From NCBI GenBank assembly GCA_036267355.1, contig DATAWG010000076.1, positions 60,291-124,290 on the forward strand: DNA of 64,000 nt, written 5' to 3'. The position numbers were made by a program, and so were the translations under genes. Origin of the DNA: Pirellulales bacterium. Its GTDB lineage: Bacteria; Planctomycetota; Planctomycetia; Pirellulales; DATAWG01. Shown piece after piece: positions 45,740 to 62,955 of this stretch. The first letter of the stretch is position 1, and the number at the start of each line of letters is the position of its first letter. The notes under the pieces are model-generated. The model was not told the DNA's origin. It was given only the letters and a program-made list of their open reading frames with translations, and made no database searches.

Positions 45740-45816
45740 ATGCATCGATCGCGTGACGTCGATCCATTCCCTGCCGTCCGAATCATTCAACCATCGTTGC
45801 GACCAAGGAGTTAGCC

Positions 45817-45996: not shown

Positions 45997-46199
45997 TTGC
46001 ATGGGCCCGGGGTCAATCGCCAGCGGCCGACCGAACCGCAAGCGATTCATCGCAGCGCCCGACACGTGCCTTGACGCCGATTGCCTCGCTGCCCGACCCC
46101 AAATCAGGCTGCCACCAAAGATCACGAGCTTCGTTCTGCTGTCTCTGACGTCCGACCCCTGACCCTGTTCTCCGCTCCTTCAACCCCCAGCGCCACCCC

Positions 46200-47078: not shown

Positions 47079-47163
47079 GCGGATGCAGCGTGGCATCGCA
47101 CGAGAGACGCGGCAGTTAACAGTCTCAATTCATCGGACTCCGAACACAGAAGGAGCGCGAATC

Positions 47164-47370
47164 ATGGGCAGCTTCCATAGGGAATCGCACGACCGGAAGA
47201 AGTCTGGCGTCGCTCGTGGCCAATCGACCGGTGCGGAAACGGTTCGTTCGTCGCGGCGATTCAGCTATAGCCAAACGAACGGTTGGCAACAAGGTAGCGC
47301 CGCTCGCGCTCGCGGCCGGGCCAATCGCCTCGCCGCATTCAACCACCGCTGGTTTGGCCGCTTCGAATAG
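47164..47370 (+). CDS. Small basic hypothetical protein (68 aa)
   Basis: AAGGAG 8 nt upstream of the ATG. MGSFHRESHDRKKSG...SSRRFSYSQTNG...FNHRWFGRFE. Weak resemblance (RRxSYS) to the small-protein family. Confidence 0.4.
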   Translation: MGSFHRESHDRKKSGVARGQSTGAETVRSSRRFSYSQTNGWQQGSAARARGRANRLAAFNHRWFGRFE

Positions 47371-47524
47371 ATGTTGCCGCGGCAACCGTCTTTTCCCTCG
47401 TGCGCGTGCCGCTGCAGGCGTGCCGCCGGGTCCGTGTGCCACTGGCTCCGCCAGTGTACGAAGAGCGAGTTCGCCCGGCCGCATCCGCCTGTTTCCGGCA
47501 AATCGCGGTCTCCGAGACAAATCT

Positions 47525-48421
47525 TCAAGCCGCCTCTGTCGCCAGTTGGCCGTCGGCATTCAGGGCGACGATGATGATCCCATGTCGCTCGGCCAGGGCG
47601 ATGCATCGCGGCTCGTCGATAAGGATGGTTCGCCCAGCTTCGACGGCCAGCAGTTTCGCTCCCGCGGCGGCCATGGTCTCGAGGGTGTCGGGCCCGATCG
47701 TGGGAACATCGAACCGCATGTCTTGTTGCGGTTTGGCGACCTTTACGACGGTGAATCCGCCCGTCGGACAAAGCGATCCGGCGCGGCGGATGCATTCGTC
47801 GGTCCCCTCGATCGCTTCGAGCGCCAGGGGCGACCGGTTCTTGACGGCGACGCTCTGACCAATGTCGAGCCGACCGAGTTCTTTCGCCAATCGCCAACCG
47901 AATTCAATGTCTTGCCGCTGGGCCGCCGAGGGTCCGCGGCGAGTCAATTGTCCGTATTTCACGAGGAGCTCCGGTGCATAGTCGGTGGCCGGCGCCAAAC
48001 GGATTCCCGCGCGCGCCAAGCCGTCGGCGATTGCGCGCAACAGGGTGTCGTCGCGGCGATCCTTGTGGCGTGCGATGAAAATAGGCCAAAGCATGCGAAC
48101 CGTTTGCCAGTCGGGCCAATATTTCCGCCATGCCCCTTTTTGGAACAGCCGGACCTTATGGACTTTGCCGACGAAGGTCGCCTCGCGCACGCCCGTTCGC
48201 TGCATGAAGCGGATCGCTTTGCCCATCCGCGCCAAGCCGACCCAGGTGAATTCGTCGCACAGATCCGCCAGCGATGGATCGGCATGCTCGGTGATTCCCA
48301 ATCCGACAACCGTAAATCCTTCGCGACGAAGCGCCGTGGCCACGACGGCCGGATAGTCTCCCCACCCGGCCACCAGCCCGATCTTCACGCGATTCGTCAT
48401 GGACATGGCAGCGATTTTCAT
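47525..48421 (-). CDS. lpxI: UDP-2,3-diacylglucosamine pyrophosphatase LpxI (DUF1009)
   Basis: IGLVAGWGDYP N-terminus, GQSVAVKNRSPLALEAIEGTDECIRRAG, FDVPTIGPDTLE. Adjacent to lpxD. Start could be an internal ATG a few codons downstream. Confidence 0.8.
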   Translation of the reverse strand: MKIAAMSMTNRVKIGLVAGWGDYPAVVATALRREGFTVVGLGITEHADPSLADLCDEFTWVGLARMGKAIRFMQRTGVREATFVGKVHKVRLFQKGAWRKYWPDWQTVRMLWPIFIARHKDRRDDTLLRAIADGLARAGIRLAPATDYAPELLVKYGQLTRRGPSAAQRQDIEFGWRLAKELGRLDIGQSVAVKNRSPLALEAIEGTDECIRRAGSLCPTGGFTVVKVAKPQQDMRFDVPTIGPDTLETMAAAGAKLLAVEAGRTILIDEPRCIALAERHGIIIVALNADGQLATEAA

Positions 48422-48569
48422 GCGCGCGGGGGGTCGGCTTATCTAACCTTCGTGCGACCGTGTAAGTCGCCGAGGTGCCACGGCTGGCTTGTCCCGGCTT
48501 GTTCAGCACCGTGGCCCGGCTCGCAGCGCACACTGCTCGGCGAGCCAGCACGGGCGCCCCGCGATTTTT

Positions 48570-49649
48570 TTAGGCTGCGGCTTGGCTTCCGCCGCGCGGT
48601 TCGCTTTCGTGCGGTTCCGCCGCCGCCAACAATGTTTCGACTTGCCGGTGCAATTCCTTGATCTGTTGCCGCATCTCCGGCAGCCGGCTGAGATGCGCGA
48701 ATTGCACTTTTTGCTGCCGCAGCGGCACCGCCGGCGCACCGAGCATTTGTGCTCCATCCGGCACGTCGTTGACCACTCCCGACTGCGCCCCGAGCACCGC
48801 GCCGGCGCCGATATGCACATGGTCGCGCACGCCGACCTGCCCCGCCATTACGACATAATCGCCCGTGGTCGTGCTTCCGGCGATTCCGACTTGCGAGCAG
48901 ATCATATTGTGCCGCCCGATGCGGCAGTTGTGGGCGATCATCACTTGGTTGTCGATCTTCGTGCCGTCGCCGATGGTCGTGGCCGAGTAGGTGCCGCGAT
49001 CGATCGTGGTGCCGGCTCCGATTTCGACATCGCAGCCGATCTCGACGTTTCCCAATTGGGCCGACAGGTGATATTGCCCGCCGGTCATTTTGTAACCGAA
49101 GCCATACGCACCAAGCACCGCCGCGGCATGGATCACCGAGCGAGCGCCGACCACCGTGTTTTCATAGAGCACCGCGTTCGGATAGATGGTCACACCGCTG
49201 CCGATCTTCGAGCCGGCCCCGACATACACGCCCGCATGAATTGTCGAATGGGGGCCGATCCGCGCGTCGTCGGCCACGGTCGCACCGGGATGCACATCGA
49301 CATCTCCCGCCAGTTGCGCGGTCGGGCTGACGTGCGCAAAAGGGCTAATGCCAAGCCGCGCCGCGATCCGCACCGGCCGAAAATGGGCCACGATCGTGCC
49401 GAACGCTTGATGCACGTCCGCCACCTGGATCGCTGCCGGATGGTCCGGCGAAAAGCCCTCGGGCACCACGACCGCGCCGGCCCGGCTGCGGGCGAGCCGA
49501 TGCGCTTTTTCGGGATTGTCTAAGAGCGTGATATCGTTCGGCCCGGCATCGGCGAGCGTTGCCGCGCCGGCGATCGGCGTCTCCGCCGAAGCTGGCTGAA
49601 GGAGCCGCCCGCCGACCAACTCTGCTAGCATCGCCAGATTCGTCGCCAT
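48570..49649 (-). CDS. lpxD: UDP-3-O-acylglucosamine N-acyltransferase LpxD
   Basis: MATNLAMLAELVGGRL N-terminus and a long run of hexapeptide repeats (left-handed beta-helix). The upstream 81 codons of the track ORF are rejected. Confidence 0.9.
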   Translation of the reverse strand: MATNLAMLAELVGGRLLQPASAETPIAGAATLADAGPNDITLLDNPEKAHRLARSRAGAVVVPEGFSPDHPAAIQVADVHQAFGTIVAHFRPVRIAARLGISPFAHVSPTAQLAGDVDVHPGATVADDARIGPHSTIHAGVYVGAGSKIGSGVTIYPNAVLYENTVVGARSVIHAAAVLGAYGFGYKMTGGQYHLSAQLGNVEIGCDVEIGAGTTIDRGTYSATTIGDGTKIDNQVMIAHNCRIGRHNMICSQVGIAGSTTTGDYVVMAGQVGVRDHVHIGAGAVLGAQSGVVNDVPDGAQMLGAPAVPLRQQKVQFAHLSRLPEMRQQIKELHRQVETLLAAAEPHESEPRGGSQAAA

Positions 49650-50017
49650 TCGATCTCCCGTTGCGGTCGTCGTGCGAGCAAGGTGTATAGCAAGGGGATT
49701 TTTGCAATCTCCCGATTGAAAAGCCGCGGCATGGTAGCGAGGGGCCGAAAATCGGGCAAGGGAGGTTGGGTCAGGCAACGGTGAGGGTCGCGGGGTTCGG
49801 GAACGCGCAAGCGGATATCGACGTGTTACGTGGAGTCTGTAGCTCGCTTGCGGTTTCGCCCGTCGGCGATGCGACGTACTGTTCTCGGCCAATTATTTGA
49901 CATCCGCTCCCCACACCGCTCCAATGGCGGGCGACATCTCCTCTTGCTGTGTCGATTTAGTTCTCGCACCTCGCGCCGACCCATCGACAGTTTCAACGCC
50001 GCTCCGGGGGAAGAATC

Positions 50018-51400
50018 ATGTGCAGGATCCGTGGAACTAAAGTTCGCCGCGATCTGTTTGGGCTGATGGTTGTGCTCCTGGCCGCTTGGGGCGCAGAGGG
50101 GTTGCTGGCGCGATCGGCGGCGCTTGCGCAAGCACCGGCCCCACCGCAAGCCGCGCCGGACGATTCACCAATCGCCCGCCCGGAAAGTTCCCAGACGGAT
50201 CCATTTGGAGAAGACGCTCCGGACGAAAATGCGCCCAAGGCGAAGGACAACGAGATAACGCCTCCGCCGATGGCGCCGGAGATCGGCTTGCCGGCGATCA
50301 AGGAGGAAGGGACATACGCCTGCCGCTCGCCAAAACACCGCCGCGAGCTTCTCAAGCAATTCGGCGGCACAAGGGCGACCGAGCGTGCCGCCGCCGCTGC
50401 GCTGTATTGGTTGGCGAAGCACCAAATGCCCGACGGCAGTTGGAGCCTGGAAAAATTCCAGAAAATGTGTACCGATAAATCGTGCACCGGTGTCGGCAGC
50501 ATCGAGTCGCTCTCCGCCGCCACCGGGCTGGGCCTGCTGCCGTTTCTTGCCGCCGGTCAGACCCAGGCCACGAATGGACCGTTCCAACGCAAGGTGGCAG
50601 CGGGCGTCTATTGGCTGCTGAACCATCAAAAAAGAGACGGCGATCTCTCGGCCGACGCTGCGTCGCAGATGTATTCCCACGCGATTGCCACGATCGCGCT
50701 GTGCGAAGATTATGGAATGACGAAAGACAAGCCGGTCGGCGTGGCCGCCCAGATGGCCGTCAATTTCATCGTCGCCGCGCAAAACCAGAAAACCGGCGGA
50801 TGGCGCTACCATCCGGGCGAGGAAGGCGATACCTCCGTCCTCGGTTGGCAGATGCAGGCGCTGCACGCCGCCCAAGAGGCCGGTCTTACGGTGAAACCGG
50901 CAGCCCTCGATGGCGCCAAAAACTTTCTCGCCTCCTGCCAACCCGCGGAACACGTTGGATGGTTTTGCTATCAGCCCGAAGCAGGCGCGACGCCGCCGAT
51001 GACGGCCGTCGGTCTTCTCGCAAGCCAAGACTTGAAGATGGACCGAACCGATCCGGTGATTTTGGGTGGCAGCGCGCTTCTGTTGGCGAACCAGCCGCAA
51101 GCCGAGAACCGCAACATCTACTATTGGTATTACGCCACGCAGGCGCTCCACAACCTGGCCGGCAAGGAATCGGAATTTACAAGCAACAAGAATTGGGACA
51201 CTTGGAACCGCAAGATTCGCAAGCTTTTGGTCGAGACTCAAGCTCGCGAAGGCTGCGCCGCCGGAAGCTGGGATCCGGACAAGCCAAACAAGGATGCCTG
51301 GGGCCCCTACGGCGGCCGCATCATGCAGACCAGCCTGAGCTGTTTGACGCTCGAAATCTACTATCGCCATCTTCCGGCCGCGCTCCCGGAAAAGCCGTGA
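50018..51400 (+). CDS. Prenyltransferase/squalene-oxidase-repeat (alpha/alpha-toroid) secreted protein
   Basis: Signal peptide, then repeated QW-like motifs (LAKHQMPDGSW, LLNHQKRDGD, AAQNQKTGGWRY). Confidence 0.7.
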   Translation: MCRIRGTKVRRDLFGLMVVLLAAWGAEGLLARSAALAQAPAPPQAAPDDSPIARPESSQTDPFGEDAPDENAPKAKDNEITPPPMAPEIGLPAIKEEGTYACRSPKHRRELLKQFGGTRATERAAAAALYWLAKHQMPDGSWSLEKFQKMCTDKSCTGVGSIESLSAATGLGLLPFLAAGQTQATNGPFQRKVAAGVYWLLNHQKRDGDLSADAASQMYSHAIATIALCEDYGMTKDKPVGVAAQMAVNFIVAAQNQKTGGWRYHPGEEGDTSVLGWQMQALHAAQEAGLTVKPAALDGAKNFLASCQPAEHVGWFCYQPEAGATPPMTAVGLLASQDLKMDRTDPVILGGSALLLANQPQAENRNIYYWYYATQALHNLAGKESEFTSNKNWDTWNRKIRKLLVETQAREGCAAGSWDPDKPNKDAWGPYGGRIMQTSLSCLTLEIYYRHLPAALPEKP

Positions 51401-51641
51401 CGCCGGGAAGTCGTCCGGCGACAACTGAATTTGGTCGAGCCACAATGCATAACCCGAAATTTGCGTCCAGCCGGACGGATTGTTACTCTGGAATCTTCGT
51501 CCGAGCTTAGCCCACCTCGATTGCCCGCTGTAGTTCCCCGCCGAGCGAGATTTGAATCTCGCTATTTTCCCGCCCCGCTTCCATCGGATGCGTCGCATTT
51601 TCAGTTGCGCCGCATCCACCCGCCACTGATTGGAGTCAGCG

Positions 51642-53336
51642 ATGCGCATTGCTTTTCTTGTTGCTTGGGGATGCTGGCTGGCCTGCGGCGCCGCGATGCC
51701 TTCGATGGCCGCCGAAAATACGCCTCGGCTTGATCGTCCGCAGCAAGTTTCGCAGAGGCACGATTCGCCGCAGCAAGATTCGCAGAAGCACGATTGGCCG
51801 CAGCATGATTGGCCGCAGTGGGGCGGAACGCTCGATCGCAACATGGTGTCCGACGCCAAAAATTTGCCCATCCGCTTCGATCCTTCGCCGAACGCCGATC
51901 CGAAAACAAGCGGCATCAAATGGTCGGTCAAGCTCGGCTCGCACAGCTATGGCAATCCGGTCATTTCCGGCGGTAAGGTGTTCGTCGGCACCAACAACGC
52001 CTCGCCGCGCGATCCTAAATACTCCGGCGACCGAAACGTGCTGATGTGCTTCAACGAAGCCGACGGCAAGTTTCTGTGGCAACTGGTCGTCTCAAAAGTG
52101 CAGGGCGAAGCTGATTACCACGAGTTGGGAATCTGCTCGTCGCCGACCATCAATGGCCGCCGCGTCTACACCGTCACCAGCCATTGCGAAATTCTTTGCC
52201 TCGACGCCAACGGCCTCTACGACGGCAACGACGGTCCGTTTGTCGACGAGGCCCAATATCTGGCCAAGCCGATCGAGCACACGCTTTCCATCGGCCCCAA
52301 TGGGCCGATTCGCAAGCTTGTTCTGGCCCCGCCGGTGAAGCTCGGCCCGACCGATGCCGACATCCTGTGGCGATACGATTTGCTTACCGGGCAAAAAGTC
52401 TGGCCCCACGATGCAACGAGTTGCTCGAGCCTCGTCTACGGCGATCTGGTCTACTTCGGCACCTGCAACGCCAAAACGCAGCATAAATATGTCCCCTATC
52501 CAAAGGCCCGGTCGCTGATCGCACTCAACAAACTCACCGGGCAACTCGTCGCTGTTGACGATGCCGATATCGGCAAGGGCATTTTTCACGGCTCGTGGTC
52601 GAGCCCTTCGCTGGGCATGGTGAATGGCCGGCCGCTGATCTTCTACGGCGGCGGCGACGGACGCTGCTATGCCTTCGATCCCAAGCCGGTTCCCAATCCC
52701 GATCCGTCGAAGCCGGCCATTTTGAAAAACGTGTGGGTCTGCGATTGCAACCCGCCCGACTATCGCGTGAAAGACGGCCGGCCGATCGTGTATCGCAACC
52801 GCAAGGGCCCCAGCGAAGTGATCGGCACTCCGGTGTCGTACAACAATCGCGTGTATGTCACGGTCGGCCAAGATCCGCTGCATGGCTCGGGCGTGGGCTG
52901 CGTCACTTGCATCGACGCCACGCTCAAGGGCGACATTTCCGCGTCGGGTCGAATCTGGCAATTCCGCGATATCGATCGCTCGCTCTCGACCGTGTCGATC
53001 GCCGATGGCTTGCTGTACGTGGGCGATTTCAGCGGCGTCGTGCATTGCCTCGATCTTGAAACCGGCCGGCAACTTTGGAAACACGAAACCGAGTCGTACA
53101 TGTGGGGCTCGACGCTGGTGGCCGATGGCAAAGTTTACTTCGGCGACAAGACCGGCACGCTTTGGATCCTGAAGGCCGGCCGGGAAAAACAAGTGCTCAA
53201 CCAAATCAAGTTCTCCGCCCCATTCTGCCAGACTCCGGTCGTCGCCAACGGCGTGCTCTATATCTGCACCGAAGAGCGACTGTACGCGATCCCCACCGGC
53301 GCCGCGGCCGAAAATCCCAAACCGCGGAGCAAATGA
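51642..53336 (+). CDS. PQQ-like beta-propeller repeat protein
   Basis: Signal peptide, then WPQWGG...DRNMVS, then repeated G.VYVG / GK.LW blades. Short DSPQQ/DWPQH N-terminal repeats. Confidence 0.8.
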   Translation: MRIAFLVAWGCWLACGAAMPSMAAENTPRLDRPQQVSQRHDSPQQDSQKHDWPQHDWPQWGGTLDRNMVSDAKNLPIRFDPSPNADPKTSGIKWSVKLGSHSYGNPVISGGKVFVGTNNASPRDPKYSGDRNVLMCFNEADGKFLWQLVVSKVQGEADYHELGICSSPTINGRRVYTVTSHCEILCLDANGLYDGNDGPFVDEAQYLAKPIEHTLSIGPNGPIRKLVLAPPVKLGPTDADILWRYDLLTGQKVWPHDATSCSSLVYGDLVYFGTCNAKTQHKYVPYPKARSLIALNKLTGQLVAVDDADIGKGIFHGSWSSPSLGMVNGRPLIFYGGGDGRCYAFDPKPVPNPDPSKPAILKNVWVCDCNPPDYRVKDGRPIVYRNRKGPSEVIGTPVSYNNRVYVTVGQDPLHGSGVGCVTCIDATLKGDISASGRIWQFRDIDRSLSTVSIADGLLYVGDFSGVVHCLDLETGRQLWKHETESYMWGSTLVADGKVYFGDKTGTLWILKAGREKQVLNQIKFSAPFCQTPVVANGVLYICTEERLYAIPTGAAAENPKPRSK

Positions 53337-53366
53337 TCCCCGAGCCCGCAGCGCTAGCAAGGAAGT

Positions 53367-53451
53367 GCGTGGGTGCCATGCCACTGCCCCGAGTGGGCAT
53401 GCGAACCGCCAATCTACGACATGCCCACGCAAAGCCGTGGGCATGGCACCC
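53367..53451. repeat. REP-like nested palindrome (GTGGGCATG / CATGCCCAC)
   Basis: The outer arms are GGGTGCCATGCCAC (53371-53384) and GTGGGCATGGCACCC (53437-53451). The inner arms are GTGGGCATG (53393-53401) and CATGCCCAC (53420-53428). Intergenic. Confidence 0.6.
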
Positions 53452-53473
53452 CAGAAGGTAAATTTTGATCTCT

Positions 53474-54667
53474 ATGTCTCGGATACGTTTGGTCGCCGCA
53501 CTCGCCGGCGCGATTTGCCTCTCGCTCCCCGCCGTGGTGTCGGCCCATCCGCTGACGGAAAACGCGGCGGACGTCGTCGTCGGCCCGGATCGGATCACGA
53601 TCGATGCCCGGATCTCGTCGGAAGAAATCGTGCTCGTTGAAAGCGAGGTGGGCCGGACTTCGACCGATGCGGAATGGCAAGCCGCTGTCGAGCGGCATGC
53701 CAAATACGTCGAGCGGCATTTTCATGTGCGCGTCGATGGCCGGGAAGTGCCCGGAACCGCCGAGTTTGCCGCGAAGCCGATTGGCGGCGATTCCGCGAGC
53801 GATTCGAGCGACGACCCGGCGCAGCAGCCGATGGTGCCCTACCGCTGGACATGTTCGCTTCCCACCGCTCCGAAGTCGGTCGAGATCGGGCAGGATTTTC
53901 TCCGCGAGTTCCCGCGCTGGCATGCCACGGTTTCGCTCCGCACGCGCCGCGTCGACCAATCGGATTTCGAGCTATCGCTTTTGCAGCGCGGCCAAACGGC
54001 GCGAATTGCCTGCGAATGGTCGCCTGGCGCCGCGCCGGTTTCCGCCGCGTCGGTTCGCACGGATGTCGACGTTTTCGCGACATTCCGGGCCTATGCCGCG
54101 CATGGCATCGAACACATTCTCACCGGCTACGACCATTTGCTCTTCATCACCGCGCTCGTGCTCGCGGCGGGATCGTTGTGGGACTTGATCAAGGTCGTTT
54201 CGGCGTTCACGCTCGCCCACACGCTGACGCTCACGCTCTCGGTGTTCAACATCGTCGCCCTGCGGTCGTCGATCGTCGAGCCGATGATCGCGGCGAGCAT
54301 CGTGTTCGTGGCGGTGCAGAATATGTTTTGGCCGGAGCGCAGTTCCGGCTGGGCCCGGCTGGCAATCGCATTCAGCTTCGGACTGTTTCACGGTCTGGGC
54401 TTCGCCGGCGGATTGAAAGACGCGCTGGTCGGAATGCCGAACATCGCACTTTGGCTGGCGCTGATCGCGTTCAGCCTGGGAGTCGAGATCGGGCACCAAC
54501 TCGTGGTGATACCGATGTATTCATTGCTGTGGGGAGTTCGAAATGCGCGCACCCTCGAGCCGCGCACGGTGCTGCAGACACGAATCCTGAAATTCGGCTC
54601 CGCGGGGATTACCCTGGCGGGAATTTATTTTCTTGTCGTAGCGATTTGCGGAATACAAACGTACTGA
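53474..54667 (+). CDS. HupE/UreJ-family membrane protein with N-terminal periplasmic domain
   Basis: Signal peptide ...VVSAHPL. GIEHILTGYDHLLFITALVL followed by about 5 more hydrophobic helices. Confidence 0.75.
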   Translation: MSRIRLVAALAGAICLSLPAVVSAHPLTENAADVVVGPDRITIDARISSEEIVLVESEVGRTSTDAEWQAAVERHAKYVERHFHVRVDGREVPGTAEFAAKPIGGDSASDSSDDPAQQPMVPYRWTCSLPTAPKSVEIGQDFLREFPRWHATVSLRTRRVDQSDFELSLLQRGQTARIACEWSPGAAPVSAASVRTDVDVFATFRAYAAHGIEHILTGYDHLLFITALVLAAGSLWDLIKVVSAFTLAHTLTLTLSVFNIVALRSSIVEPMIAASIVFVAVQNMFWPERSSGWARLAIAFSFGLFHGLGFAGGLKDALVGMPNIALWLALIAFSLGVEIGHQLVVIPMYSLLWGVRNARTLEPRTVLQTRILKFGSAGITLAGIYFLVVAICGIQTY

Positions 54668-54699
54668 TCCTTGGAAGCCGAGCGGAAAGGCAAGCGACA

Positions 54700-56181
54700 A
54701 TGAGCATCCACGATGAAAACCTATCCACGAAGGGCGAAGCGGCACGGCTGACGCGGCGGCGGCTGCTGGGCTCGATCGCGGCCGGCGGGGCCGTGGCGGC
54801 GGCTTCGGCGCTGTTGCCGCCGAATGTGCGGCGGGCCCTGGCCGAGCCGGCCCCGAAGAAGGCATCGCTCCGCGATATCAAGCATCTCGTGCTGCTGATG
54901 CAGGAGAACCGTTCGTTCGATCACTATTTCGGCACGCTCGCCGGCGTGCGCGGCTTCGAGGATCCGGATGTCCTTAAGTTACCCAATGGCAAGACTGTGT
55001 TTCATCAGCCCGACGCCGAGCATCCCAACGGTTATCTGATGCCGTTTCATCTCGACACGCGCAAGACCAACGCGCAAAAACTTCCCTCGACCAGCCACGC
55101 CTGGGAAGTGCAACACCATGCCTGGAACGGTGGAAAGATGGACAGTTGGTTGTCGGCCCATCGCCAGGCCGACGGCGACAAGGCGCCGTATGTAATGGGC
55201 TATCACACGCGCGACGACATTCCATTTCAATTCGCGCTCGCCGAGGCGTTCACCATCTGCGATGCGTATCACTGCTCCGTGATGGGCCCGACCTGGCCGA
55301 ACCGCATGTTTTGGATGACCGGCACGATCGATCCGGAGGGAAAAGGGGGCGGCCCGTTGACCAGCAATCGCGTCATTCCCAAGGGATTCCGCTGGCCAAC
55401 CTATGCCGAGCGATTGGAAACAGCGGGAGTGAGTTGGAAGGTCTACCAGCAGCACGACAACTATGGCTGCAACATGCTCGAGAATTTTCGCGCCTTTCGC
55501 GAAGCCCCCAAGCACTCCCCTTTATATCTCAAAGGGATGAAGCGCGAGCCGGACGGAACGTTCGAGCACGACGCGGTGAACGACAAGCTGCCGCAAGTCT
55601 CGTGGATCATTCCCACGGGCAGGGCATCGGAACATCCCGATTTCATGCCTGCGGCGGGCGCGGCGTTCGTCGCCAGCAAGATCGACGCCATCGCCGCGAA
55701 TCCGGAGGTGTGGGCCAAGACGGCGTTTGTGCTGAACTACGACGAAAACGACGGCATTTTCGACCATGTGCCGCCCCCGGTGCCGCCCGCCGGCACGCCC
55801 CAAGAATTCATCCGCGGATTGCCGATCGGCGGCGGATTCCGTGTGCCGTGCATCATCGTCTCGCCGTGGACCGCCGGCGGCTGGGTTTGCAGCCAGACGT
55901 TCGATCACACCTCGGTGTTGCAGTTGCTGGAGAAATTCACGGGCGTGGCCGAGCCAAACATTTCCGCATGGCGGCGGCACACCTTCGGCGATCTCACCGC
56001 GGCCTTCCGCTTCGAATCGGAGCGGTCCGCTCCGCCGAAACTGCCCGAGACCGCAACGGAGCTGCATCTGGCCGAGCACAACGCGGCCCATTTGCCGAAG
56101 CCGCCCGTCCCGAGCGGATTGCAGGCCCTCCCGAAGCAAGAAAAGGGTTCCCGCAAGCGGATTCAACACGGCGATCATTGA
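54700..56181 (+). CDS. Phospholipase C / acid-phosphatase (phosphoesterase) family protein, Tat-secreted
   Basis: Twin-arginine signal LTRRRLLGS. IKHLVLLMQENRSFDHYFGTLAGVRGF. 493 aa, so no C-terminal DUF756-type extension. Confidence 0.85.
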   Translation: MSIHDENLSTKGEAARLTRRRLLGSIAAGGAVAAASALLPPNVRRALAEPAPKKASLRDIKHLVLLMQENRSFDHYFGTLAGVRGFEDPDVLKLPNGKTVFHQPDAEHPNGYLMPFHLDTRKTNAQKLPSTSHAWEVQHHAWNGGKMDSWLSAHRQADGDKAPYVMGYHTRDDIPFQFALAEAFTICDAYHCSVMGPTWPNRMFWMTGTIDPEGKGGGPLTSNRVIPKGFRWPTYAERLETAGVSWKVYQQHDNYGCNMLENFRAFREAPKHSPLYLKGMKREPDGTFEHDAVNDKLPQVSWIIPTGRASEHPDFMPAAGAAFVASKIDAIAANPEVWAKTAFVLNYDENDGIFDHVPPPVPPAGTPQEFIRGLPIGGGFRVPCIIVSPWTAGGWVCSQTFDHTSVLQLLEKFTGVAEPNISAWRRHTFGDLTAAFRFESERSAPPKLPETATELHLAEHNAAHLPKPPVPSGLQALPKQEKGSRKRIQHGDH

Positions 56182-56760
56182 ACCGCGAGTACGGCCGTCG
56201 CGTCGCGATCAACGCCTGCGCCGCCCACCGAGGGTTCGCCGCAATCGGCCGAACCAGATCCGCCCCGCCGATCGTCATCGATCGCTCTTATGAGTTGCCG
56301 ATGTTTTTCCGGCGAGCCGCATCACGACGGTTCCGCCAGTTGGCGCCCGCATGCTTCACAAGCGCCTGCTCGGCCGCGACGAATCCTCGGCCGGCGGCAG
56401 CGAGTCCGGAAGTCCCAGTTGAGCCAATCGTGTGAGACCTTTGCCGACCGCCCGTATGCCTTCGCAACAATACTGCTTCTGCTCGGATTAGTCAGCGTAC
56501 GTGTGGAACGCGTCTGCGGCACGGACCAGCAGCACCGGGGGCGTCGTCGGATCGAGCATGTAGGAATTGCAGCGCCGCAGAATCTCGGGCCACCGCTTCG
56601 AGCGATTCGAGCGGCTCCATCGAAAGCACGGCATGCGAGCCGTCGGAAAAAGCACGGCAGTCATCACCACACAACGAAAACGCGGCGGAACAAAACCATC
56701 GCAAAGCGTTCGGCCTTCAGGCCGAGAAGAGCGCGTCGCCGAGATGCTTCAACGGGCCGC

Positions 56761-57786
56761 TCAAGCCCGGAGCTGATCGCGCGCCAAAGATTCGTCGTCC
56801 GGCAGATCACGCTGGGCGATGAGGCGGGTGAGCGTATTGGGATGGATGCCCAGAAGCTTGGCGGCGCGGCCCTTGTGCCCACGCGTCGCGCCGAGAGCCT
56901 GGCGGACGGCTTCGTCGCGCAGCCGTGTCAAATTGAAAAATGGCAGCGATCCCGAGGCATGCGCGGCCGGACCGGAATTCGGCAGGCAGGGATTCGATTC
57001 CAGCACATACGACTGCTCGATCACGTGCGACAACTGCCGGATATTGCCCGGCCAATCGTATTCACAAAATTGGCGAAGCGTTTCCGGATCGGGGCGCCAC
57101 ACCGATCGATGGTATTTCGCCGCGTTTCGGGCCGAGAAGAACGCGATCAGTTCCGGAATGTCGTCCAAGCGTTGCCGTAGCGGCGGGACACGCAGTTCCA
57201 CCATGTTGAGCCGATAAAACAGATCCTCGCGAAAACGGCCGGCGAGCACTTCGGCCTCGAGGTCGCGATTCGTGGCGGCGATCACCTGCACGCTAATCGG
57301 CTCCGGATGTGCGGCGCCGACGGGGGTGACCTCGCGTTCTTGCAAGACACGGAGCAATTTCGGCTGCAGTTCGAGCGGCATTTCGCCGATCTCGTCGAGA
57401 AATGCAATTCCTCCCTCGGCAGCTCGAAACACGCCAAGCGAACTGCCCAAGGCGCCCGTGAACGCTCCGCGCTCGTGGCCGAACAGTTGGCTTTCGGCGA
57501 GCGAAGTCGTCAGGGCGGCACAATTGACAGGCACGAATGGCTTGTTCGCCCGTGGGCCGCCGCTATGGACGACGCGGGCCCAGATCTCTTTTCCGGTGCC
57601 CGTCTCGCCGGAGATCAGCACCGTGCACTCGACTTCGGCAGCCCGGCTGGCGTGCTGCGCTACCCGGCGGATCCCAGCATTACAACCGAGCACCCATTCG
57701 AGTTCGGGCTGACGACGCGTAGCCGGCGGTGCGGACTCGGCCCGCGCGCCCACCCCGTTCACCGATTCACCGAATAAATTCTTCAC
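56761..57786 (-). CDS. Sigma-54-dependent transcriptional activator lacking a sensory N-terminal domain (PspF/HrpS-like architecture)
   Basis: GETGTGKE Walker A, ERGAFTGA (GAFTGA loop), GGIAFLDEIGEM Walker B, C-terminal HTH (AAKLLGIHPNTLTRLI). Only about 30 aa precede the AAA+ core. GTG start. Confidence 0.9.
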   Translation of the reverse strand: MKNLFGESVNGVGARAESAPPATRRQPELEWVLGCNAGIRRVAQHASRAAEVECTVLISGETGTGKEIWARVVHSGGPRANKPFVPVNCAALTTSLAESQLFGHERGAFTGALGSSLGVFRAAEGGIAFLDEIGEMPLELQPKLLRVLQEREVTPVGAAHPEPISVQVIAATNRDLEAEVLAGRFREDLFYRLNMVELRVPPLRQRLDDIPELIAFFSARNAAKYHRSVWRPDPETLRQFCEYDWPGNIRQLSHVIEQSYVLESNPCLPNSGPAAHASGSLPFFNLTRLRDEAVRQALGATRGHKGRAAKLLGIHPNTLTRLIAQRDLPDDESLARDQLRA

Positions 57787-58069
57787 TTCGAAAAGTCCGC
57801 TGGCGAAGGCATTGTCCTAAGGAAGCGTCATAGAATTGCAACGGACATCGACATTTGCAGTTCACAGCACAAACCAACTTCACAGCCGACTTCAAAACGA
57901 CGCAAGTCGTCGATTAATGCAAAAATCTGTTCGGCGCGAACCACTCGCTCCAGCCCAGTTCGACAAGCGGGCAATCCACGGGCGGCTCGAGATTTGACGG
58001 CATGCCGGACGCAGCCAATCCAACTTCAACCGCCAAAGAAAGAGGCTCAGTCGTATCGACAACGGCGAA

Positions 58070-58240
58070 TCAACTGTAGCGCTTGTTGCGCCGGCGATGG
58101 ATGCCGTTGAAGCCCGCAGGACGTGATGTCCGGGCATGCTCCGGCCGCCGCGATCGCGGCCGCTCAACCGACTCCGGCTTGCGAACCTTAACTTGGTAGT
58201 CCAACTCTTGCTCGTTGTAATAATCATTTGCCGCGTTCAC
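58070..58240 (-). CDS. Small arginine-rich protein, NGIHRRRNKR C-terminal motif family (56 aa)
   Basis: GTG start preceded by AAGGGA. Translation: MNAANDYYNEQELDYQVKVRKPESVERPRSRRPEHARTSRPAGFNGIHRRRNKRYS. Confidence 0.6.
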   Translation of the reverse strand: MNAANDYYNEQELDYQVKVRKPESVERPRSRRPEHARTSRPAGFNGIHRRRNKRYS

Positions 58241-58377
58241 AGTATGTTCCCTTATTGATGAAGCGCCACCAAACTCTCTCCCCGACGACTCGATTTCCAA
58301 CCCGGCCAATGGCGCGCCTCATTCGTTCCACGACCAAAGTCGATCGGCTAACGCGCGCTTTCGGCGAACACCCTCTT

Positions 58378-58393
58378 TGCAAGCACCGTTCCA
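58378..58393 (-). promoter_or_regulatory. Candidate sigma-54 (-24/-12) promoter
   Basis: The minus strand reads TGGAACGGTGCTTGCA, against the consensus TGGCACG-N4-TTGCW. GG and GC fall at exactly the canonical spacing. About 138 nt upstream of the GTG at 58240. Confidence 0.5.
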
Positions 58394-58914
58394 AAACCCG
58401 GCTGAATAGCGAGAGAAGTCGCAGACCATTCGCTCATATAGAGTTGCGGCTAGAAGCCGGCATTTTCAAACAATCCAAAGAACCGTGCCGTCTTCACCAT
58501 TTTGAGTGATATCGAGGTCGCAAAATCAACGCATCGCTAGCCGAGCAAACGGTTTATGAAGCAAACACTGAACTAGTGCGATATCACTGAATCGGTGAGA
58601 GGGGGGTAATGGTCAGCGAGAAGCGTCCCAGTCCGCGGACGAGGGCTCGAGCGCGTCCGGAAATTCACGGCCTGGAATATGGGCTTATGGGCTGTCGAAA
58701 CAGCGCCGTGCGCTGGGTAGATCTTATGCAAAGGTGCGGCGCCCTTGTCCCGCACGAATGAGCACCGAGATAGGCACACGACGCAAAACGCGCGATCGTG
58801 CCCAGTCGCCCCTGCATCCAGTCGCATGAAATCAAACGCAGCGCCCTTGTGGCAGAGGACGGGGCGGGGGTCGGCAAGAAGTTATTTTCGGCCGACCCTT
58901 CTTACGATCGCTCG

Positions 58915-59091
58915 TCAGAAAGAATAGCGCTTGTTTCGACGGCGGTGCTTGCCGTTAAAGCCGGCATTGGTCGACTTTCGAGATCGCTCGGGTCCGCGCC
59001 GGCGACGACTCGAGTTATCGCGCTGACGCTCATTCGCAGAAGGCAACGTCGATTCCGAGTCGTCGAATATGAACGAATTGGCCGAGTTCAC
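58915..59091 (-). CDS. Small arginine-rich protein, NGKHRRRNKR C-terminal motif family (58 aa)
   Basis: GTG start with GGAG upstream. Translation: MNSANSFIFDDSESTLPSANERQRDNSSRRRRGPERSRKSTNAGFNGKHRRRNKRYSF. It shares the MN(A/S)AN start and the C-terminal motif with 58070-58240. Confidence 0.55.
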   Translation of the reverse strand: MNSANSFIFDDSESTLPSANERQRDNSSRRRRGPERSRKSTNAGFNGKHRRRNKRYSF

Positions 59092-59182
59092 GAGTTGGGC
59101 TCCGTTTGTCACTCTTTGCCGCGGGCAAGAAACGACGACCATCAGCACACCTTCGGACAAGAACTTCGACCGACCTCGACTT

Positions 59183-59198
59183 CGCAAAAGTCATTCCG
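59183..59198 (-). promoter_or_regulatory. Candidate sigma-54 (-24/-12) promoter
   Basis: The minus strand reads CGGAATGACTTTTGCG, with GG and TTGC at canonical spacing. About 92 nt upstream of the GTG at 59091. Confidence 0.45.
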
Positions 59199-59756
59199 CA
59201 ATTGACGCGAATCAGCAGTTGCTTGTAACCAACTGCGGCGATTCGCTTTAGACAAATAAGTCCCAAATGGACGAACCTTCGACCTGCCACACAGATGTGC
59301 TAAATTTCTATGGTCAATGTTGCAACTCGTTGAACATACGGTTCTTGCGGCGATTCCCAAAAACAGTGACATCTCACCAAAATAGTGATTATCGGCTCTT
59401 TCCCCTTCTGCCGAATGTGGCATCGCTTTGCTGCGTTACAGGGCTGCTCCGGACCGGTGCGTGCGGTTTCAAGTGCGCGACGAACAGCCAGTCCGCTCGT
59501 TTGCGGTGGCATGCCCGTTTCCCAAGCAACGAACTGATCTCCGTTCTGCCTCGACCAATGCGCCTGGTCGATCGAAATTTGTCGTTCGATATCTGGCGAT
59601 ACTGTTTCGACTTGCGGAGTTTCGATTATTCGAGCGACAGCGAATCAACAGCGTCCGGTATATCCCTTGCTTGAAAAACCTTGAATCGTGTTGGCCGCTT
59701 CAGAGCGCCATCGTTCAAGACGCGAACAATCTGAGTAGTTGCAAAAGGAGAATTTC

Positions 59757-60884
59757 ATGATCAAGAAATTGGCGAAGTGGGCAGGAGCATTCGCGGCAGC
59801 GGCTGCCGCGGCACTGGTCGGGGGCCACGTGGCCTTCGCAGATCCGCCGGTGCGAGTAGAACCACGGGCTCCCGAAGCCGTGCGTGAAGCGCCCCGTGAA
59901 GCGGTGCGCGACAACCGCGCGGCGGTGCGCGACGCCCGGATCGACCGTCGCGCTCGTCGGGCGCCGGGTGAGCTGGGACTGAGAATTGGGGCCGTGGCCG
60001 ATCGGGGGCTAGCGATCGCGAACCTCGTCACCAACAGCGTGTTCTACGATGCGGGACTACGGCCGAGCGATTACATCGTCTCGGTCGACGGACATCGGAT
60101 CGTCGCCCCGGGCGACTTTGACCGGTATCTCTATGCTGCTGGCCCGGATCAACCGGTGCAGATCGTGGTCTGGCGGAACGGTGCGGACCAAACGCTCACC
60201 ATTCAACCCTCCGTTCTGTATGCGAATGACGCCTACGACAACGATCTGAACAATTTCGGCGTCGAATTCGACCCGCAATACACCAATCAGTTGCTCATTC
60301 GCCGCGTGCTTCCCGGGTCGCGCGCCTATCTGTCCGGCCTTCGGGATGGCGATGTGATCACGGGTTGGAATGGTCAGCGCATTCGCTCGCCGCAAGAATT
60401 CGCGAAAGTGATTCACGACGAAAAGCCGGGGCGCGTTGCGTTCGACTATAACCGCGGCTCGAAGACAATGCAGGGGAATGTTACATTCGATCGTCGCGAC
60501 GAACGCACACCGAACGCCGCCGGGACCCAACCGGCCGACCGGACTGCTCAACGCGATACTCGACCCATAGAGCCGTCGCGGGTAGGCCCAACTCCCCGCG
60601 AACCGACCCCGACGGTCACTCCGCCGGCAAATCCGCGCGAAACCACGCCGACGGTCACCCCGCCGACGAATCCGCGCGAGCCGATCCCGACGGTTACACC
60701 GCCGGCTGGTCGCGAGCCGGGTCAGACCACGCCTCCGGCTGGTCGCGAACCGCCGCGAACCAATCCGCCTGCGGAAGGCCGAGCGCCGTCTGCGGCACCG
60801 CGCGCTGAAGCGCCGCGCCCGGCCGAGGCCCCGCGCCCGGCCGCACCGGCATCTCGCGAAGGAACCGCACCCGGTGCGAAATAA
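59757..60884 (+). CDS. Secreted protein with two PDZ-like domains and a Pro/Thr-rich tandem-repeat tail
   Basis: AAAGGAG Shine-Dalgarno. Signal peptide (KWAGAFAAAAAAALVGG). PDZ-like segments (GLRPSDYIVSVDGHRI; GLRDGDVITGWNGQRI). The tail carries NPRE(T/P)xPTVTPP three times and AGREP twice. Confidence 0.75.
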   Translation: MIKKLAKWAGAFAAAAAAALVGGHVAFADPPVRVEPRAPEAVREAPREAVRDNRAAVRDARIDRRARRAPGELGLRIGAVADRGLAIANLVTNSVFYDAGLRPSDYIVSVDGHRIVAPGDFDRYLYAAGPDQPVQIVVWRNGADQTLTIQPSVLYANDAYDNDLNNFGVEFDPQYTNQLLIRRVLPGSRAYLSGLRDGDVITGWNGQRIRSPQEFAKVIHDEKPGRVAFDYNRGSKTMQGNVTFDRRDERTPNAAGTQPADRTAQRDTRPIEPSRVGPTPREPTPTVTPPANPRETTPTVTPPTNPREPIPTVTPPAGREPGQTTPPAGREPPRTNPPAEGRAPSAAPRAEAPRPAEAPRPAAPASREGTAPGAK

Positions 60885-60911
60885 CGCTTGTCGCTCGAAT
60901 GACTATGCGTC

Positions 60912-60952
60912 AAACGTCCGGCTTGGGACCGCTCCAAGCCGGACGTTTTTTT
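60912..60952 (+). terminator. Rho-independent terminator
   Basis: Perfect 13-bp stem ACGTCCGGCTTGG / CCAAGCCGGACGT with a 7-nt loop, followed by T7. Lies 28 nt after the stop at 60884. Confidence 0.8.
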
Positions 60953-61180
60953 GTTGATGGACTACGGGGCTGAGATCCACAAGCTTTAAAGGTTTACAGT
61001 CGGCGGGGCAGGCCTTTGAAGCCAGGCAGAAAGTCCGTATATCGGATTGATAGGAATGGGCGGGCAAGCTTGTCGCCTTTTCGCGGACTAGCTTTAGATT
61101 GATGGCCCGATCGTTCTTGTCTGCGCGCGTCAGGCAAGCGTTTTTTAGGGCCGGGATTACCCCCGCCCGCAGTTGCCGCG

Positions 61181-62602
61181 ATGTCCAATCAGCCTGCACG
61201 AATTCAACAGTTCCATTCGATCCTCGATGTCTTCTCGCGATTGACCGATACAATCGCGATCATCGGCAGCTTGCTTTTGCTGGGTATGCACGGGCCCGTG
61301 CTATCGGGCGAGGACCTGTGGCTCGCGGCGATTTTAGCGGTGATCGTCTACTATATTGCCGCTGAAGTGACCGGACTGTTTCGAAGTTGGCATGGAGCCA
61401 CCGCCGAGCGGGAATTGGGATGCACCCTGCTGACGTGGGGACTTACGGTTCCGATTCTGCTGGCGATCGGCTTCTGGACGGGCTCGATCGGCGCGGGCCG
61501 CGGCGAACTGTCGCGTGGCGGATTGTTGCGCTGGTTGCTATTGGCGCCGGCGATGATGGCGGCCGGGCGGATCGGCTACCGCACCGCGCTCCGGCTGGTG
61601 CGGCGGCGCGGCTGGAACTCCAGGGGGTTCGCCATCGTCGGGGCCAATGAACTCGGCTTTCAATTGGCTCGCAACATCGAAATTTCGCCGGAAATGGGCC
61701 TGAAGCTTGTCGGATTTTTCGACGACCGGCCGCCAGAACGGCGGGCCACGATTCCCGGCGATGTTGGGAATTGTGTCGGAAACCTCGACGATCTTTTGGC
61801 CCACGCCAGCGACGGCCGGGTTCACATGATCTACATCACGCTGCCGCTCCGCGCTGAACAGCGGATCAAAAGCGTGCTGGCACGACTTGCCGACACGACG
61901 GCTTCGGTCTATGTCGTGCCGGATTTTTTCGTGTTCGAATTGTTGCATTCGCGGTGGACCAATATCGGCGGCCTGCCGGCGGTAAGCATTTTCGAAACCC
62001 CGCTCTACGGTGTCGGCGGCGCGGTCAAGCGTGTGCTCGATATGGCGCTGGCGAGCGTGTTTCTGATTGTCGCCGGATTGCCGATGTTGGCGATTGCCGT
62101 GTCGATCAAGCTCACTTCACGCGGCCCGGTCTTTTTCAAGCAAAAGCGCTACGGTCTCGACGGCCGGCCGATCGATGTTTGGAAGTTTCGCACGATGAAG
62201 GTGTGCGAAAGCGGCTCAGCCGTCGTGCAAGCCACCAAGTCCGACCCCCGGATTACGCCGCTCGGATCGTTCTTGCGGCGAAGTTCGCTCGATGAATTGC
62301 CGCAATTGTTTAACGTGATCGAGGGAAATATGTCGTTGGTAGGCCCCCGGCCGCACGCCAACGTTCACAACGAACTGTATCGCAAGCAAATCCAAGGCTA
62401 CATGCTTCGCCACAAGGTGAAGCCGGGAATCACAGGCCTGGCCCAAGTCAATGGCTGGCGCGGTGAAACCGACACGCTGGATAAAATGCAGAAGCGTGTC
62501 GAATGCGATCATCAATACATCCGCGACTGGTCTCCCTGGCTCGACATGAAGATTCTCATGCGAACCATCGCGGCGGTTTTGACGAGGCAAAATGCGTACT
62601 GA
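61181..62602 (+). CDS. Undecaprenyl-phosphate hexose-1-phosphate transferase (WcaJ/WbaP-type polyprenyl glycosylphosphotransferase)
   Basis: Four N-terminal TM segments, then a Rossmann-like FAIVGANELG. SRGPVFFKQKRYGLDGRPIDVWKFRTM, DELPQLFNVIEGNMSLVGPRPH, KPGITGLAQVNGWRG. Confidence 0.9.
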   Translation: MSNQPARIQQFHSILDVFSRLTDTIAIIGSLLLLGMHGPVLSGEDLWLAAILAVIVYYIAAEVTGLFRSWHGATAERELGCTLLTWGLTVPILLAIGFWTGSIGAGRGELSRGGLLRWLLLAPAMMAAGRIGYRTALRLVRRRGWNSRGFAIVGANELGFQLARNIEISPEMGLKLVGFFDDRPPERRATIPGDVGNCVGNLDDLLAHASDGRVHMIYITLPLRAEQRIKSVLARLADTTASVYVVPDFFVFELLHSRWTNIGGLPAVSIFETPLYGVGGAVKRVLDMALASVFLIVAGLPMLAIAVSIKLTSRGPVFFKQKRYGLDGRPIDVWKFRTMKVCESGSAVVQATKSDPRITPLGSFLRRSSLDELPQLFNVIEGNMSLVGPRPHANVHNELYRKQIQGYMLRHKVKPGITGLAQVNGWRGETDTLDKMQKRVECDHQYIRDWSPWLDMKILMRTIAAVLTRQNAY

Positions 62603-62778
62603 AGAGGGGCGATCTTGCGGCCGCGCATGGCTGAGCTTGCGGCATAGGAACCGCTACAAACCGACACGAACTCGTGCATTTTGCATTAATTTCTGCGGGG
62701 AGCCGCAAAGCTGCCGGAAATATGTACTAGATTTTAAGTACATCCTGACTTCTCCACCCTAACCTAGTGAGTTCCTTC

Positions 62779-62955
62779 ATGCGTCGATTTTGCCAGTTTG
62801 TTCGGTTCTTCATCCGCAAAGAAGATGGGCCCACGTCCGTAGAATATGCCGTCATGCTCGCACTGATCGTGTTGGTCTGCATGTCGGCCATCAAAACGCT
62901 GGGCACGAACACGAAAACGACGTTTTCCAATATGTCGTCCTCGCTGGGAAGTTGA
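62779..62955 (+). CDS. Flp/Fap-family type IVb pilin
   Basis: Flp motif EDGPTSVEYAVMLALIVLV after a short basic leader. 58 aa from ATG 62779 (62 aa from GTG 62767). Confidence 0.75.
   Translation: MRRFCQFVRFFIRKEDGPTSVEYAVMLALIVLVCMSAIKTLGTNTKTTFSNMSSSLGS

Follow-up and report, generated by a model that had tools for sequence, protein, structure and literature searches.

The window analysed here, a 64,000-nucleotide (nt) stretch of contig DATAWG010000076.1 of a Pirellulales bacterium, appears to encode a conserved sigma-54 regulatory circuit of the Planctomycetia. Its components are a sigma-54 activator lacking a sensory domain (the activator), a stand-alone degenerate receiver protein (X) and three small basic proteins (mini-proteins A, B and C). 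We put the probability at roughly 0.55 that X and the mini-proteins are the targets of this circuit and likely feed back on the activator. Three regulatory units in the genome, each with an enhancer at a fixed distance (about 110 and about 180-215 base pairs, bp) from a predicted -24/-12 promoter, are supported by sequence conservation. The first-pass annotation of positions 56761-59198, whose coordinates and strings all check out, had proposed that a sensor-less activator acts via upstream sites on two sigma-54 promoters, each preceding a short open reading frame (ORF), and phylogenetic footprinting together with conservation supports this. The two-ORF picture holds but is partial: a third promoter, X, mini-protein C and probably a PEP-CTERM gene belong to the system too.

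The features of the first two units are listed below. Sigma-54 sites were scored on both strands of the window as the number of positions matching TGGCACG-N4-TTGCW (maximum 12), and enhancer distances were taken from the palindrome centre to the -24 GG.

56761-57786, minus strand: sigma-54 enhancer-binding protein without a sensor, 341 amino acids (aa), GTG start (Pfam)
58070-58240, minus strand: mini-protein A, 56 aa, GTG start, isoelectric point (pI) 10.6, C-terminal GFNGIHRRRNKRYS (homologues)
58378-58393, minus strand: predicted sigma-54 promoter P-A, TGGAACGGTGCTTGCA, predicted start near 58367 (score 11/12)
58494-58509, unstranded: proximal putative enhancer of P-A, TCACTCAAAATGGTGA, 110 bp 5' of the GG (8-genome footprint)
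58584-58598, unstranded: distal putative enhancer of P-A, TCACCGATTCAGTGA, 199.5 bp 5' of the GG (8-genome footprint)
58915-59091, minus strand: mini-protein B, 58 aa, GTG start, pI 11.7, C-terminal GFNGKHRRRNKRYSF (paralogue of A)
59183-59198, minus strand: predicted sigma-54 promoter P-B, CGGAATGACTTTTGCG, predicted start near 59172 (score 8/12 plus conservation)
59355-59388, unstranded: tandem putative enhancer of P-B, TCACTATTTTGGTGA at 59374-59388 plus the degenerate TCACTGTTTTTGGGA at 59355-59369 (4-genome footprint)

Related loci were collected by scanning one genome for each GTDB species with a degenerate pattern, which gave 63 loci (labelled L0xx below) that are, by their labels, nearly all metagenome-assembled genomes of Planctomycetia, Pirellulales or Planctomycetaceae. 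Carriers of the system include OY970273.1, OY970289.1, OY969698.1 and CAWDFN010000001.1, and many of the genomes stem from soil and sediment sampled in Denmark. The region upstream of A was aligned across eight genomes and that upstream of B across four. Clustering of ORFs for conserved neighbours, which was noisy from shadow ORFs in GC-rich DNA, returned X, the activator and clade-specific genes only.

The translation of the activator carries GETGTGKE, LDEIGE and GAFTGA. Pfam places Sigma54_activat (PF00158) at residues 34-198 (E = 4.4e-64), AAA_lid_14 (PF25601) at 204-266 and the Fis-type helix-turn-helix HTH_8 (PF02954) at 293-321, the latter with 31.9 bits against a cutoff of 22. Both the AAA+ domain with Walker A/B and GAFTGA and the C-terminal Fis-type helix-turn-helix that define sigma-54 activators are present, and by its domain content the protein falls into the sensor-less class. 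No Pfam domain was found before residue 34, where there is only a tail of about 33 aa, and the ORF is not extendable upstream because in the ORF list it begins with the first start codon that follows an in-frame stop. The absence of a receiver, GAF or PAS input domain, as noted in the first pass, is thereby confirmed. The activator reached none of the NCBIfam equivalog cutoffs, including those for PspF (TIGR02974, 217 bits against 443.55; NF008622, 179 against 529) and PrsR (TIGR02915, 252.9 bits against 502.6), the last match spanning profile positions 137-443 and so including no receiver. Among its best family-level matches was the NtrC model TIGR01818 (275 bits). The nearest solved structures to its AAA+ core were NifA, ZraR, FlrA, NtrC and FleQ, with PspF ranking lower. 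Judged from its sequence, the protein is a genuine sigma-54 activator without a sensory domain and not a PspF orthologue, since the PspF cutoff was missed and PspF is structurally more distant. Activator orthologues are 331-352 aa long, and in about 25 of the 63 loci an orthologue (59-83% identity) lies on the same strand beside X/mini-protein genes; the co-occurrence with the small ORFs, which the first pass had proposed to check, is thus seen in relatives. In the window's own clade (L001, L003, L066, L069, L070 and L071) the orthologues are 81-83% identical.

A and B are, by comparison of their sequences, genuine paralogous genes of a new family, with 15 of 18 C-terminal residues identical (AGFNGxHRRRNKRYS). 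In a database of 5.8 billion proteins A had 13 homologues with 64-98% identity, and a profile search over 1.84 billion representatives gave 77 clusters of the family, nearly all of them stand-alone proteins of 54-70 aa. The common layout is an N-terminal MNxAN..Y..ExDY, an arginine-rich middle and a near-invariant tail of 13 residues, NGIHRRRNKR(F/Y)(S/A)W. The mini-proteins have pI values of 10.6-11.7 and a net charge of +7 to +9 in 56-59 residues, the first 20 or so residues being acidic. The AlphaFold model of A has no fold (predicted template modelling score, pTM, 0.14), and the family is predicted to be intrinsically disordered. No match was found in Pfam, NCBIfam or PDB at E values up to 1-10, the motif string was not found in the papers searched, and every copy in the databases bears the name 'hypothetical protein'. 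In the 60 different DNA sequences that encode the core motif, the invariant residues are each specified by 2-5 synonymous codons (His by CAT 31 times and CAC 29 times; Arg by CGC, CGT, CGG, CGA and AGG), and selection therefore acts on the mini-protein itself. Paralogy, conservation and synonymous variation bear out the claim that ORFs A and B are real, and the comparative data support mini-proteins that are translated, under purifying selection and trans-acting.

A mini-protein gene immediately precedes the activator gene in seven relatives; the gene for A does so in L001, L003, L066, L069, L070 and L071, and B orthologues lie 5' of A in L001, L003 and L066. A and the activator gene are separated by just 3 nt in L070 and by 27 nt in L069, which argues for an operon of the two in these genomes. 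The proposed ORF-promoter-activator arrangement is thus kept in relatives, both in the footprints of eight (A) and four (B) genomes and in the A-activator adjacency. In the window the spacer from the stop of A to the start of the activator (57787-58069, minus strand, 284 nt) begins TGATTCGCCGTTGTCG...TGGCGG...TGGATTGGCTGCG, which is kept in L001 and L066; it can form stem-loops and has a weak terminator-like hairpin at 57941-57929. This spacer may work as an attenuator and thereby set how much A is made relative to the activator; its L070 counterpart is just 3 nt long. A scan of 56.5-59.8 kb for consensus terminators and sigma-70 promoters gave matches at or below chance.

The position of A raises the question of whether the small ORFs could instead be cis-acting leader or arrest peptides, whose C-terminus stalls the ribosome and thereby controls the translation or transcription of the gene behind them, namely that of the activator in the case of A and the PEP-CTERM gene in that of C. 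Arrest peptides of the SecM, TnaC and MifM type are conserved next to the stop codon, and the conservation of the mini-proteins is likewise concentrated in the last 13 residues before the stop; A closely precedes the activator gene in L070 and L069, and C precedes a gene for a secreted protein. We consider this highly improbable. What follows B is just the regulatory region of A, and in one large clade the mini-protein gene is the last of its operon, standing before a hairpin with a T-run, beyond which there is a convergent gene. Moreover, the N-terminal MNxAN..Y..ExDY is conserved too, TAA, TAG and TGA are used without preference, and the sequence after the stop is unconserved.

P-A (11/12) is the single best sigma-54 site on either strand of the 64-kb window, and its GG and TTGC are invariant across eight aligned relatives. 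The conserved islands upstream of A are two TCAC-N7/8-GTGA palindromes, the promoter (tTGGaaCg-N4-aTTGC), an AAGGGAA ribosome-binding site and the GTG start; the sequence outside these islands has diverged. P-B (8/12) is equalled or beaten by 157 sites in the window and is not significant alone, but its GG and TTGC are kept at the same position 5' of B across four genomes, the counterparts being CGGAACAAATTTTGCA in L001, TGGAACACAAATTGCA in L003 and TGGAACAAAGTTTGCT in L066 (read from the B-upstream alignment). P-B is weak by score and supported by conservation of its predicted elements. Of the two promoters claimed in the first-pass annotation, both have the canonical spacing; scoring of the consensus against the background bore out P-A and did not single out P-B, which owes its standing to conservation. 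The lower GC content reported for this region was confirmed (0.48-0.56 at 58.2-59.7 kb against about 0.60-0.68 in the coding flanks). One further sigma-54-like string, TGGGACGCTTCTCGCT (10/12; 58615-58630, minus strand), lies 5' of the A enhancers; it is not kept in the eight-genome alignment and is probably due to chance.

One might ask whether the ORFs and GG-N10-GC strings are altogether coincidental in a long intergenic region. The bare GG-N10-GC string is common (1161 occurrences in the window), P-B reaches just 8/12, and spurious ORFs are frequent in GC-rich genomes. Coincidence is nonetheless the least credible of the explanations weighed here, given that ORFs, promoters, enhancers and their spacing are conserved across about 70 loci, with synonymous variation at the invariant residues.

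The third unit lies 11 kb away at 44785-47078 on the plus strand and comprises an enhancer, a promoter (P-X), X, mini-protein C and a PEP-CTERM gene.

44785-44799, unstranded: putative enhancer of P-X, TCACCTTTTCCGTGA, 180.5 bp 5' of the GG (window scan)
44971-44986, plus strand: predicted sigma-54 promoter P-X, CGGCGCGGTCGTTGCT, predicted start near 44997 (score 10/12)
45251-45739, plus strand: X, stand-alone degenerate receiver (CheY-like) domain, 162 aa (AlphaFold, Foldseek, PDB profile)
45817-45996, plus strand: mini-protein C, 59 aa, ATG start, C-terminal VNGIHRRRHKRCTW (HEX3999300.1, 'hypothetical protein')
46200-47078, plus strand: secreted PEP-CTERM-anchored protein (PF07589, 30 bits against a cutoff of 20.7)

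L001 and L066 keep P-X as CGGCGCGG-N3-TTGCTTTA, with GG and TTGC invariant in three genomes. Among the related loci, 40 of 63 (63%) have an X-upstream site scoring at least 10/12, compared to 2.5% of 1112 background segments of 650 nt; in most loci strong matches stand 100-450 nt 5' of X (for example, TGGCACG-N4-GTGCA, TGGCACCGTGCTTGCT and YGGTATAGCACTTGCY). The leader of about 250 nt between P-X and X contains a GTGTG-rich block, TTTGTGTGAATCGATGTGTAAG...GTGTGTGG (about 45040-45110, plus strand), which L001 and L066 retain and of which L069 has a looser version. No Rfam family matched anywhere in the window, and the long leaders are therefore not explained by a known RNA element.

The enhancers of all three units share one motif. 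The family-wide consensus derived from related loci is a 15-bp palindrome, TCACCA-N3-TGGTGA, and the looser pattern TCAC-N7/8-GTGA was scanned in the window and in 667 kb of related loci. The window has four matches (at 44785, 58494, 58584 and 59374) against a shuffle mean of 1.7, and all four lie 110-200 bp 5' of one of the three predicted sigma-54 promoters. Zones of up to about 250 bp 5' of these promoters make up about 1.2% of the window, so that four of four by chance would have a probability of about 1e-8 by our own estimate. The best-conserved block upstream of B in the four genomes is the tandem pair of palindromes, centred 184.5 bp (59374-59388) and 165.5 bp (59355-59369) 5' of the GG; the P-X upstream region has, in addition, a GGTGAAA half-site near 44868. 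In the related loci 81 of 104 palindrome matches fall within 800 nt 5' of X, enhancer-promoter distances cluster at about 111, 194 and 213 bp, and about 60 loci of the Planctomycetia show this arrangement of enhancer and promoter. This redefines the AGTGAYATC half-sites that had been suggested as activator binding sites: the strings were located as claimed, but the conserved unit is TCAC-N7/8-GTGA, the ATATCG extension being genome-specific. The supposed inverted pair AGTGATATCG / CGATATCACT turned out to be the facing inner halves of the two separate A palindromes, and AGTGATTATCG and AGTGACATC each form the right half of one of the two B palindromes.

In 62 of 63 loci the mini-protein gene has, about 100 bp 5' and in the same orientation, a gene for X, a protein of about 160 aa. 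Its AlphaFold model (predicted local distance difference test score, pLDDT, 83.5) has a (beta-alpha)5 fold, the top Foldseek matches are all receiver domains (E down to 3e-7, template modelling score, TM, 0.8-0.85 normalised to the target), and the profile of X against PDB hits receiver domains only. Pfam Response_reg was not matched; there were weak matches to the receiver-like VpsR domain and the NtrC receiver, and the X profile aligns best to the NtrC receiver, GAxxYLP included. In an alignment with receiver domains, E. coli references among them, X keeps the phospho-acceptor Asp (D82, invariant), and the pocket around it is incomplete: the acidic pair is replaced by Ser or variable residues, the Thr by a near-invariant C112 and the Lys by an invariant G135. 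Sequence and model support X being a degenerate receiver that is seemingly no longer phosphorylatable. Its invariant residues form one unbroken run of 15, EIWARQLGAWLYLPG, on alpha4-beta5. The X family has a median pI of 5.15 and is only 30-40% identical at class-level divergence, where the NGxHRRRNKR core of the mini-proteins is invariant. In L055 two tandem copies of X (1613-2050 and 2402-2839) precede the mini-protein gene.

Mini-protein C, which is 90% identical to its L001 copy and adjoins X, is the ancestral-type copy, and A and B are clade-specific duplicates; the ancestral target of the circuit, and the universal one, is X paired with a mini-protein. In L001 the gene order is B, A, activator, X, C, PEP-CTERM gene, LpxI, LpxD. 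Compared to L001 (10400-17400), the block X-C-PEP-CTERM-LpxI-LpxD is inverted in the window (45000-56760), and genes for a terpene-cyclase-like protein, a PQQ/BamB-like propeller, HupE/UreJ and a phosphoesterase stand between the inverted block and the activator (50.0-56.2 kb); a rearrangement therefore split the ancestral cluster. Divergent from B, at 59739-62955 on the plus strand, is an envelope cluster that is syntenic in L001 and L066 and encodes a secreted protein that has two PDZ domains and a proline-rich tail of PTVTPPxNPRE repeats, a WcaJ-type priming glycosyltransferase for exopolysaccharide (EPS; TIGR03023) and a Flp pilin followed by Tad genes.

The PEP-CTERM gene at 46200-47078 is probably the distal member of the X-C operon. 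In 33 of 64 loci, spread over several clades, the mini-protein gene is followed by a PEP-CTERM gene in the same orientation, and the PEP-CTERM proteins encoded there belong to unrelated families. In L014 (5757-8286) the order is enhancer, promoter, mini-protein, PEP-CTERM gene, X, a permutation that supports co-transcription of the three genes. One clade has a translational fusion with a conserved linker, the mini-protein ...NGIHRRRNKRWTW being followed by GSGRGAR, a signal peptide and a secreted domain ending in PEP-CTERM; it was found in L015 (2444-3802) and in at least six 50%-identity clusters (P0139, P0146, P0189, P0197, P0200 and P0202). Stop-codon read-through into the PEP-CTERM ORF, suggested by these fusions and an apparent open frame, was considered and rejected, as the in-frame sequence after the stop is unconserved and all three stops are used.

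Most proteobacterial PEP-CTERM genes have a sigma-54 promoter and a PrsR site, and Rhodopirellula baltica has PEP-CTERM proteins but lacks PrsR, PrsK and PrsT (Haft et al., 2006; PMC1569441). The circuit could then be a planctomycete counterpart of PrsK/PrsR that switches on PEP-CTERM surface proteins for an exosortase/exopolysaccharide programme, with X and the mini-protein as accessories. The downstream PEP-CTERM genes, the window's own included, the fusions, the L014 gene order, the proteobacterial precedent and the EPS priming transferase among the window neighbours all speak for such a role. Like the PrsK/PrsR/PrsT system, it has a sigma-54 promoter and an upstream activator site before PEP-CTERM genes and an association with exopolysaccharide loci. 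As opposed to that system, the activator misses the PrsR model and has no receiver, there is no PrsK or PrsT nearby, and the first genes are X and the mini-protein rather than PEP-CTERM. Since, in addition, about half of the loci have no downstream PEP-CTERM gene, no PEP-CTERM gene follows A or B, and the PEP-CTERM proteins are of unrelated families, we regard this role as doubtful, albeit compatible with the mini-proteins being either regulators or effectors.

Under the reading that we prefer, in which X and the mini-proteins feed back on the activator, P-A would drive mini-protein A and, probably by read-through, the activator gene; P-B would drive mini-protein B, and P-X would drive X, mini-protein C and probably the PEP-CTERM surface protein. 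Since the activator has no input domain of its own and has X and the mini-proteins as its only conserved targets, its activity would most likely be set in trans through binding by X, by the mini-proteins or by both. The result would be a feedback and input module comparable to PspA for PspF or HrpV/HrpG for HrpS, in which the C-terminal tail of the mini-protein may dock on the alpha4-beta5 patch of X, both of them being invariant.

Several observations weigh against this. P-B, as said, does not stand out by score. Binding of the palindrome by the adjacent activator is suggested by their co-occurrence, and about half of the loci, the whole 'MSAP' clade included, have no activator gene within 6 kb. 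In 22 loci the activator orthologue (59-81% identity) lies about 0.7 kb 5' of X on the same strand, and no enhancer or sigma-54 promoter was found upstream of the activator gene there; autoregulation is therefore at most clade-specific. A circuit that targets only its own regulators would be pointless, so real outputs must exist, be it the PEP-CTERM genes, genes elsewhere or the mini-proteins themselves. Finally, the duplication of the mini-protein (A and B, each with a strong regulatory unit of its own) without X fits a stoichiometric effector better than a regulator.

This last point leads to the main rival, in which the mini-proteins are the physiological output, abundant disordered basic stress proteins that under the inducing condition bind a nucleic acid or some other polyanion (ribosome, nucleoid, RNA or membrane), and X alone feeds back. 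A net charge of this size in so short a protein with no predicted fold would suit such a role, and the invariance of NGxHRRRNKR at class level, where X is far more variable, suggests a very conserved target. Two duplications of the mini-protein gene have given copies that each have an enhancer and a promoter of their own, X remaining single, and in one clade the gene stands last in the operon, before the hairpin with a T-run. As opposed to this, the mini-proteins have no similarity to known ribosome-, DNA- or RNA-binding families in Pfam, NCBIfam or PDB, and their strict pairing with X, like the matching patches of invariant residues, points to a protein partner. The fusion ahead of a signal peptide in one clade would moreover tether the mini-protein to the membrane, which would be odd for a ribosome or nucleoid factor. 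We consider the output role possible, though unlikely compared to feedback by X and the mini-proteins.

The feedback reading finds its closest parallels among activators controlled by a partner. As in the PspF-PspA system of Enterobacteria, the activator consists of an AAA+ core and a helix-turn-helix without a sensor in cis and is encoded beside its sigma-54 operon; there, PspA, the first product of the operon, binds back to PspF and inhibits it in trans. Unlike in that system, the PspF models are missed, no PspA/IM30 or PspBC homologues are present, and the candidate partners are a pseudo-receiver and a disordered basic protein of 56-60 aa. In the HrpR/HrpS-HrpV-HrpG system of Pseudomonas syringae, the activator is likewise sensor-less, the small HrpV regulates it negatively in trans and HrpG counters HrpV; the proposed two-protein control module of X and the mini-protein would similarly be encoded within its regulon. 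The differences are that there is a single activator rather than a co-dependent pair, that X has a receiver fold unrelated to HrpV, and that a type III secretion context is missing.

A further likeness is to NtrC and glnAp2. The enteric NtrC site is TGCACCA-N3-TGGTGCA and lies 100-140 bp 5' of the promoter; its core is identical to the enhancer core CACCA-N3-TGGTG. This likeness, together with that between GAWLYLPG of X and GAFDYLPKP of NtrC, suggests an NtrC-type descent, to which the TIGR01818 match of the activator and the closeness of the X profile to the NtrC receiver can be added. X looks like an NtrC-type receiver that became detached and lost its phosphorylation chemistry. As opposed to NtrC, the receiver is a separate protein, encoded 3' of the activator gene or, in the window, 11 kb off, and lacks the acidic pair, Thr and Lys; there is no NtrB-like kinase nearby, and the targets are not nitrogen-assimilation genes. 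In NtrC1 and DctD the unphosphorylated receiver holds the AAA+ domain inactive via its alpha4-beta5-alpha5 face, and CheY uses the same face to bind short peptides from the ends of FliM and CheZ. The corresponding face of X is its invariant patch, with the difference that X would act in trans and without phosphorylation. A tentative extension of the feedback reading, which we regard as less likely than the output role of the mini-proteins, is therefore a split response regulator without phosphorylation, in which X gates an NtrC-like activator in trans and the docking of the mini-protein tail on X is the switch. If so, the input of the circuit would be how much of a peptide is present or sequestered, in place of a kinase signal, and in lineages where this peptide is tethered to a PEP-CTERM precursor, the export of an envelope protein would be coupled to sigma-54 transcription.

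Overall, the sigma-54 regulatory grammar is classical, and the partner proteins, their motif and the split architecture are new. The first-pass view that the arrangement is undescribed holds, as nothing was found in Pfam, NCBIfam, PDB, Rfam or the papers searched; a 2025 survey of sigma-54 regulons at the level of COGs treats the Planctomycetia only generally. Sensor-less sigma-54 activators are rare, and the well-studied PspF and HrpRS established the principle of control in trans, of which the present case would be a third, unrelated example. The circuit spans many uncultured lineages of the Planctomycetia, with a cleanly definable enhancer motif and a fixed promoter geometry. It brings in two new partner families, a receiver that has lost its phosphorylation chemistry and mini-proteins about 58 aa long whose 13-residue tail is near-invariant. 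Several ORFs of 56-60 aa that are unannotated or annotated as nothing are thus real, strongly selected genes. For a phylum in which there is almost no experimental knowledge of sigma-54 regulation, the circuit offers a testable entry, and it may explain how PEP-CTERM surface proteins are controlled in planctomycetes, which lack PrsK/PrsR.

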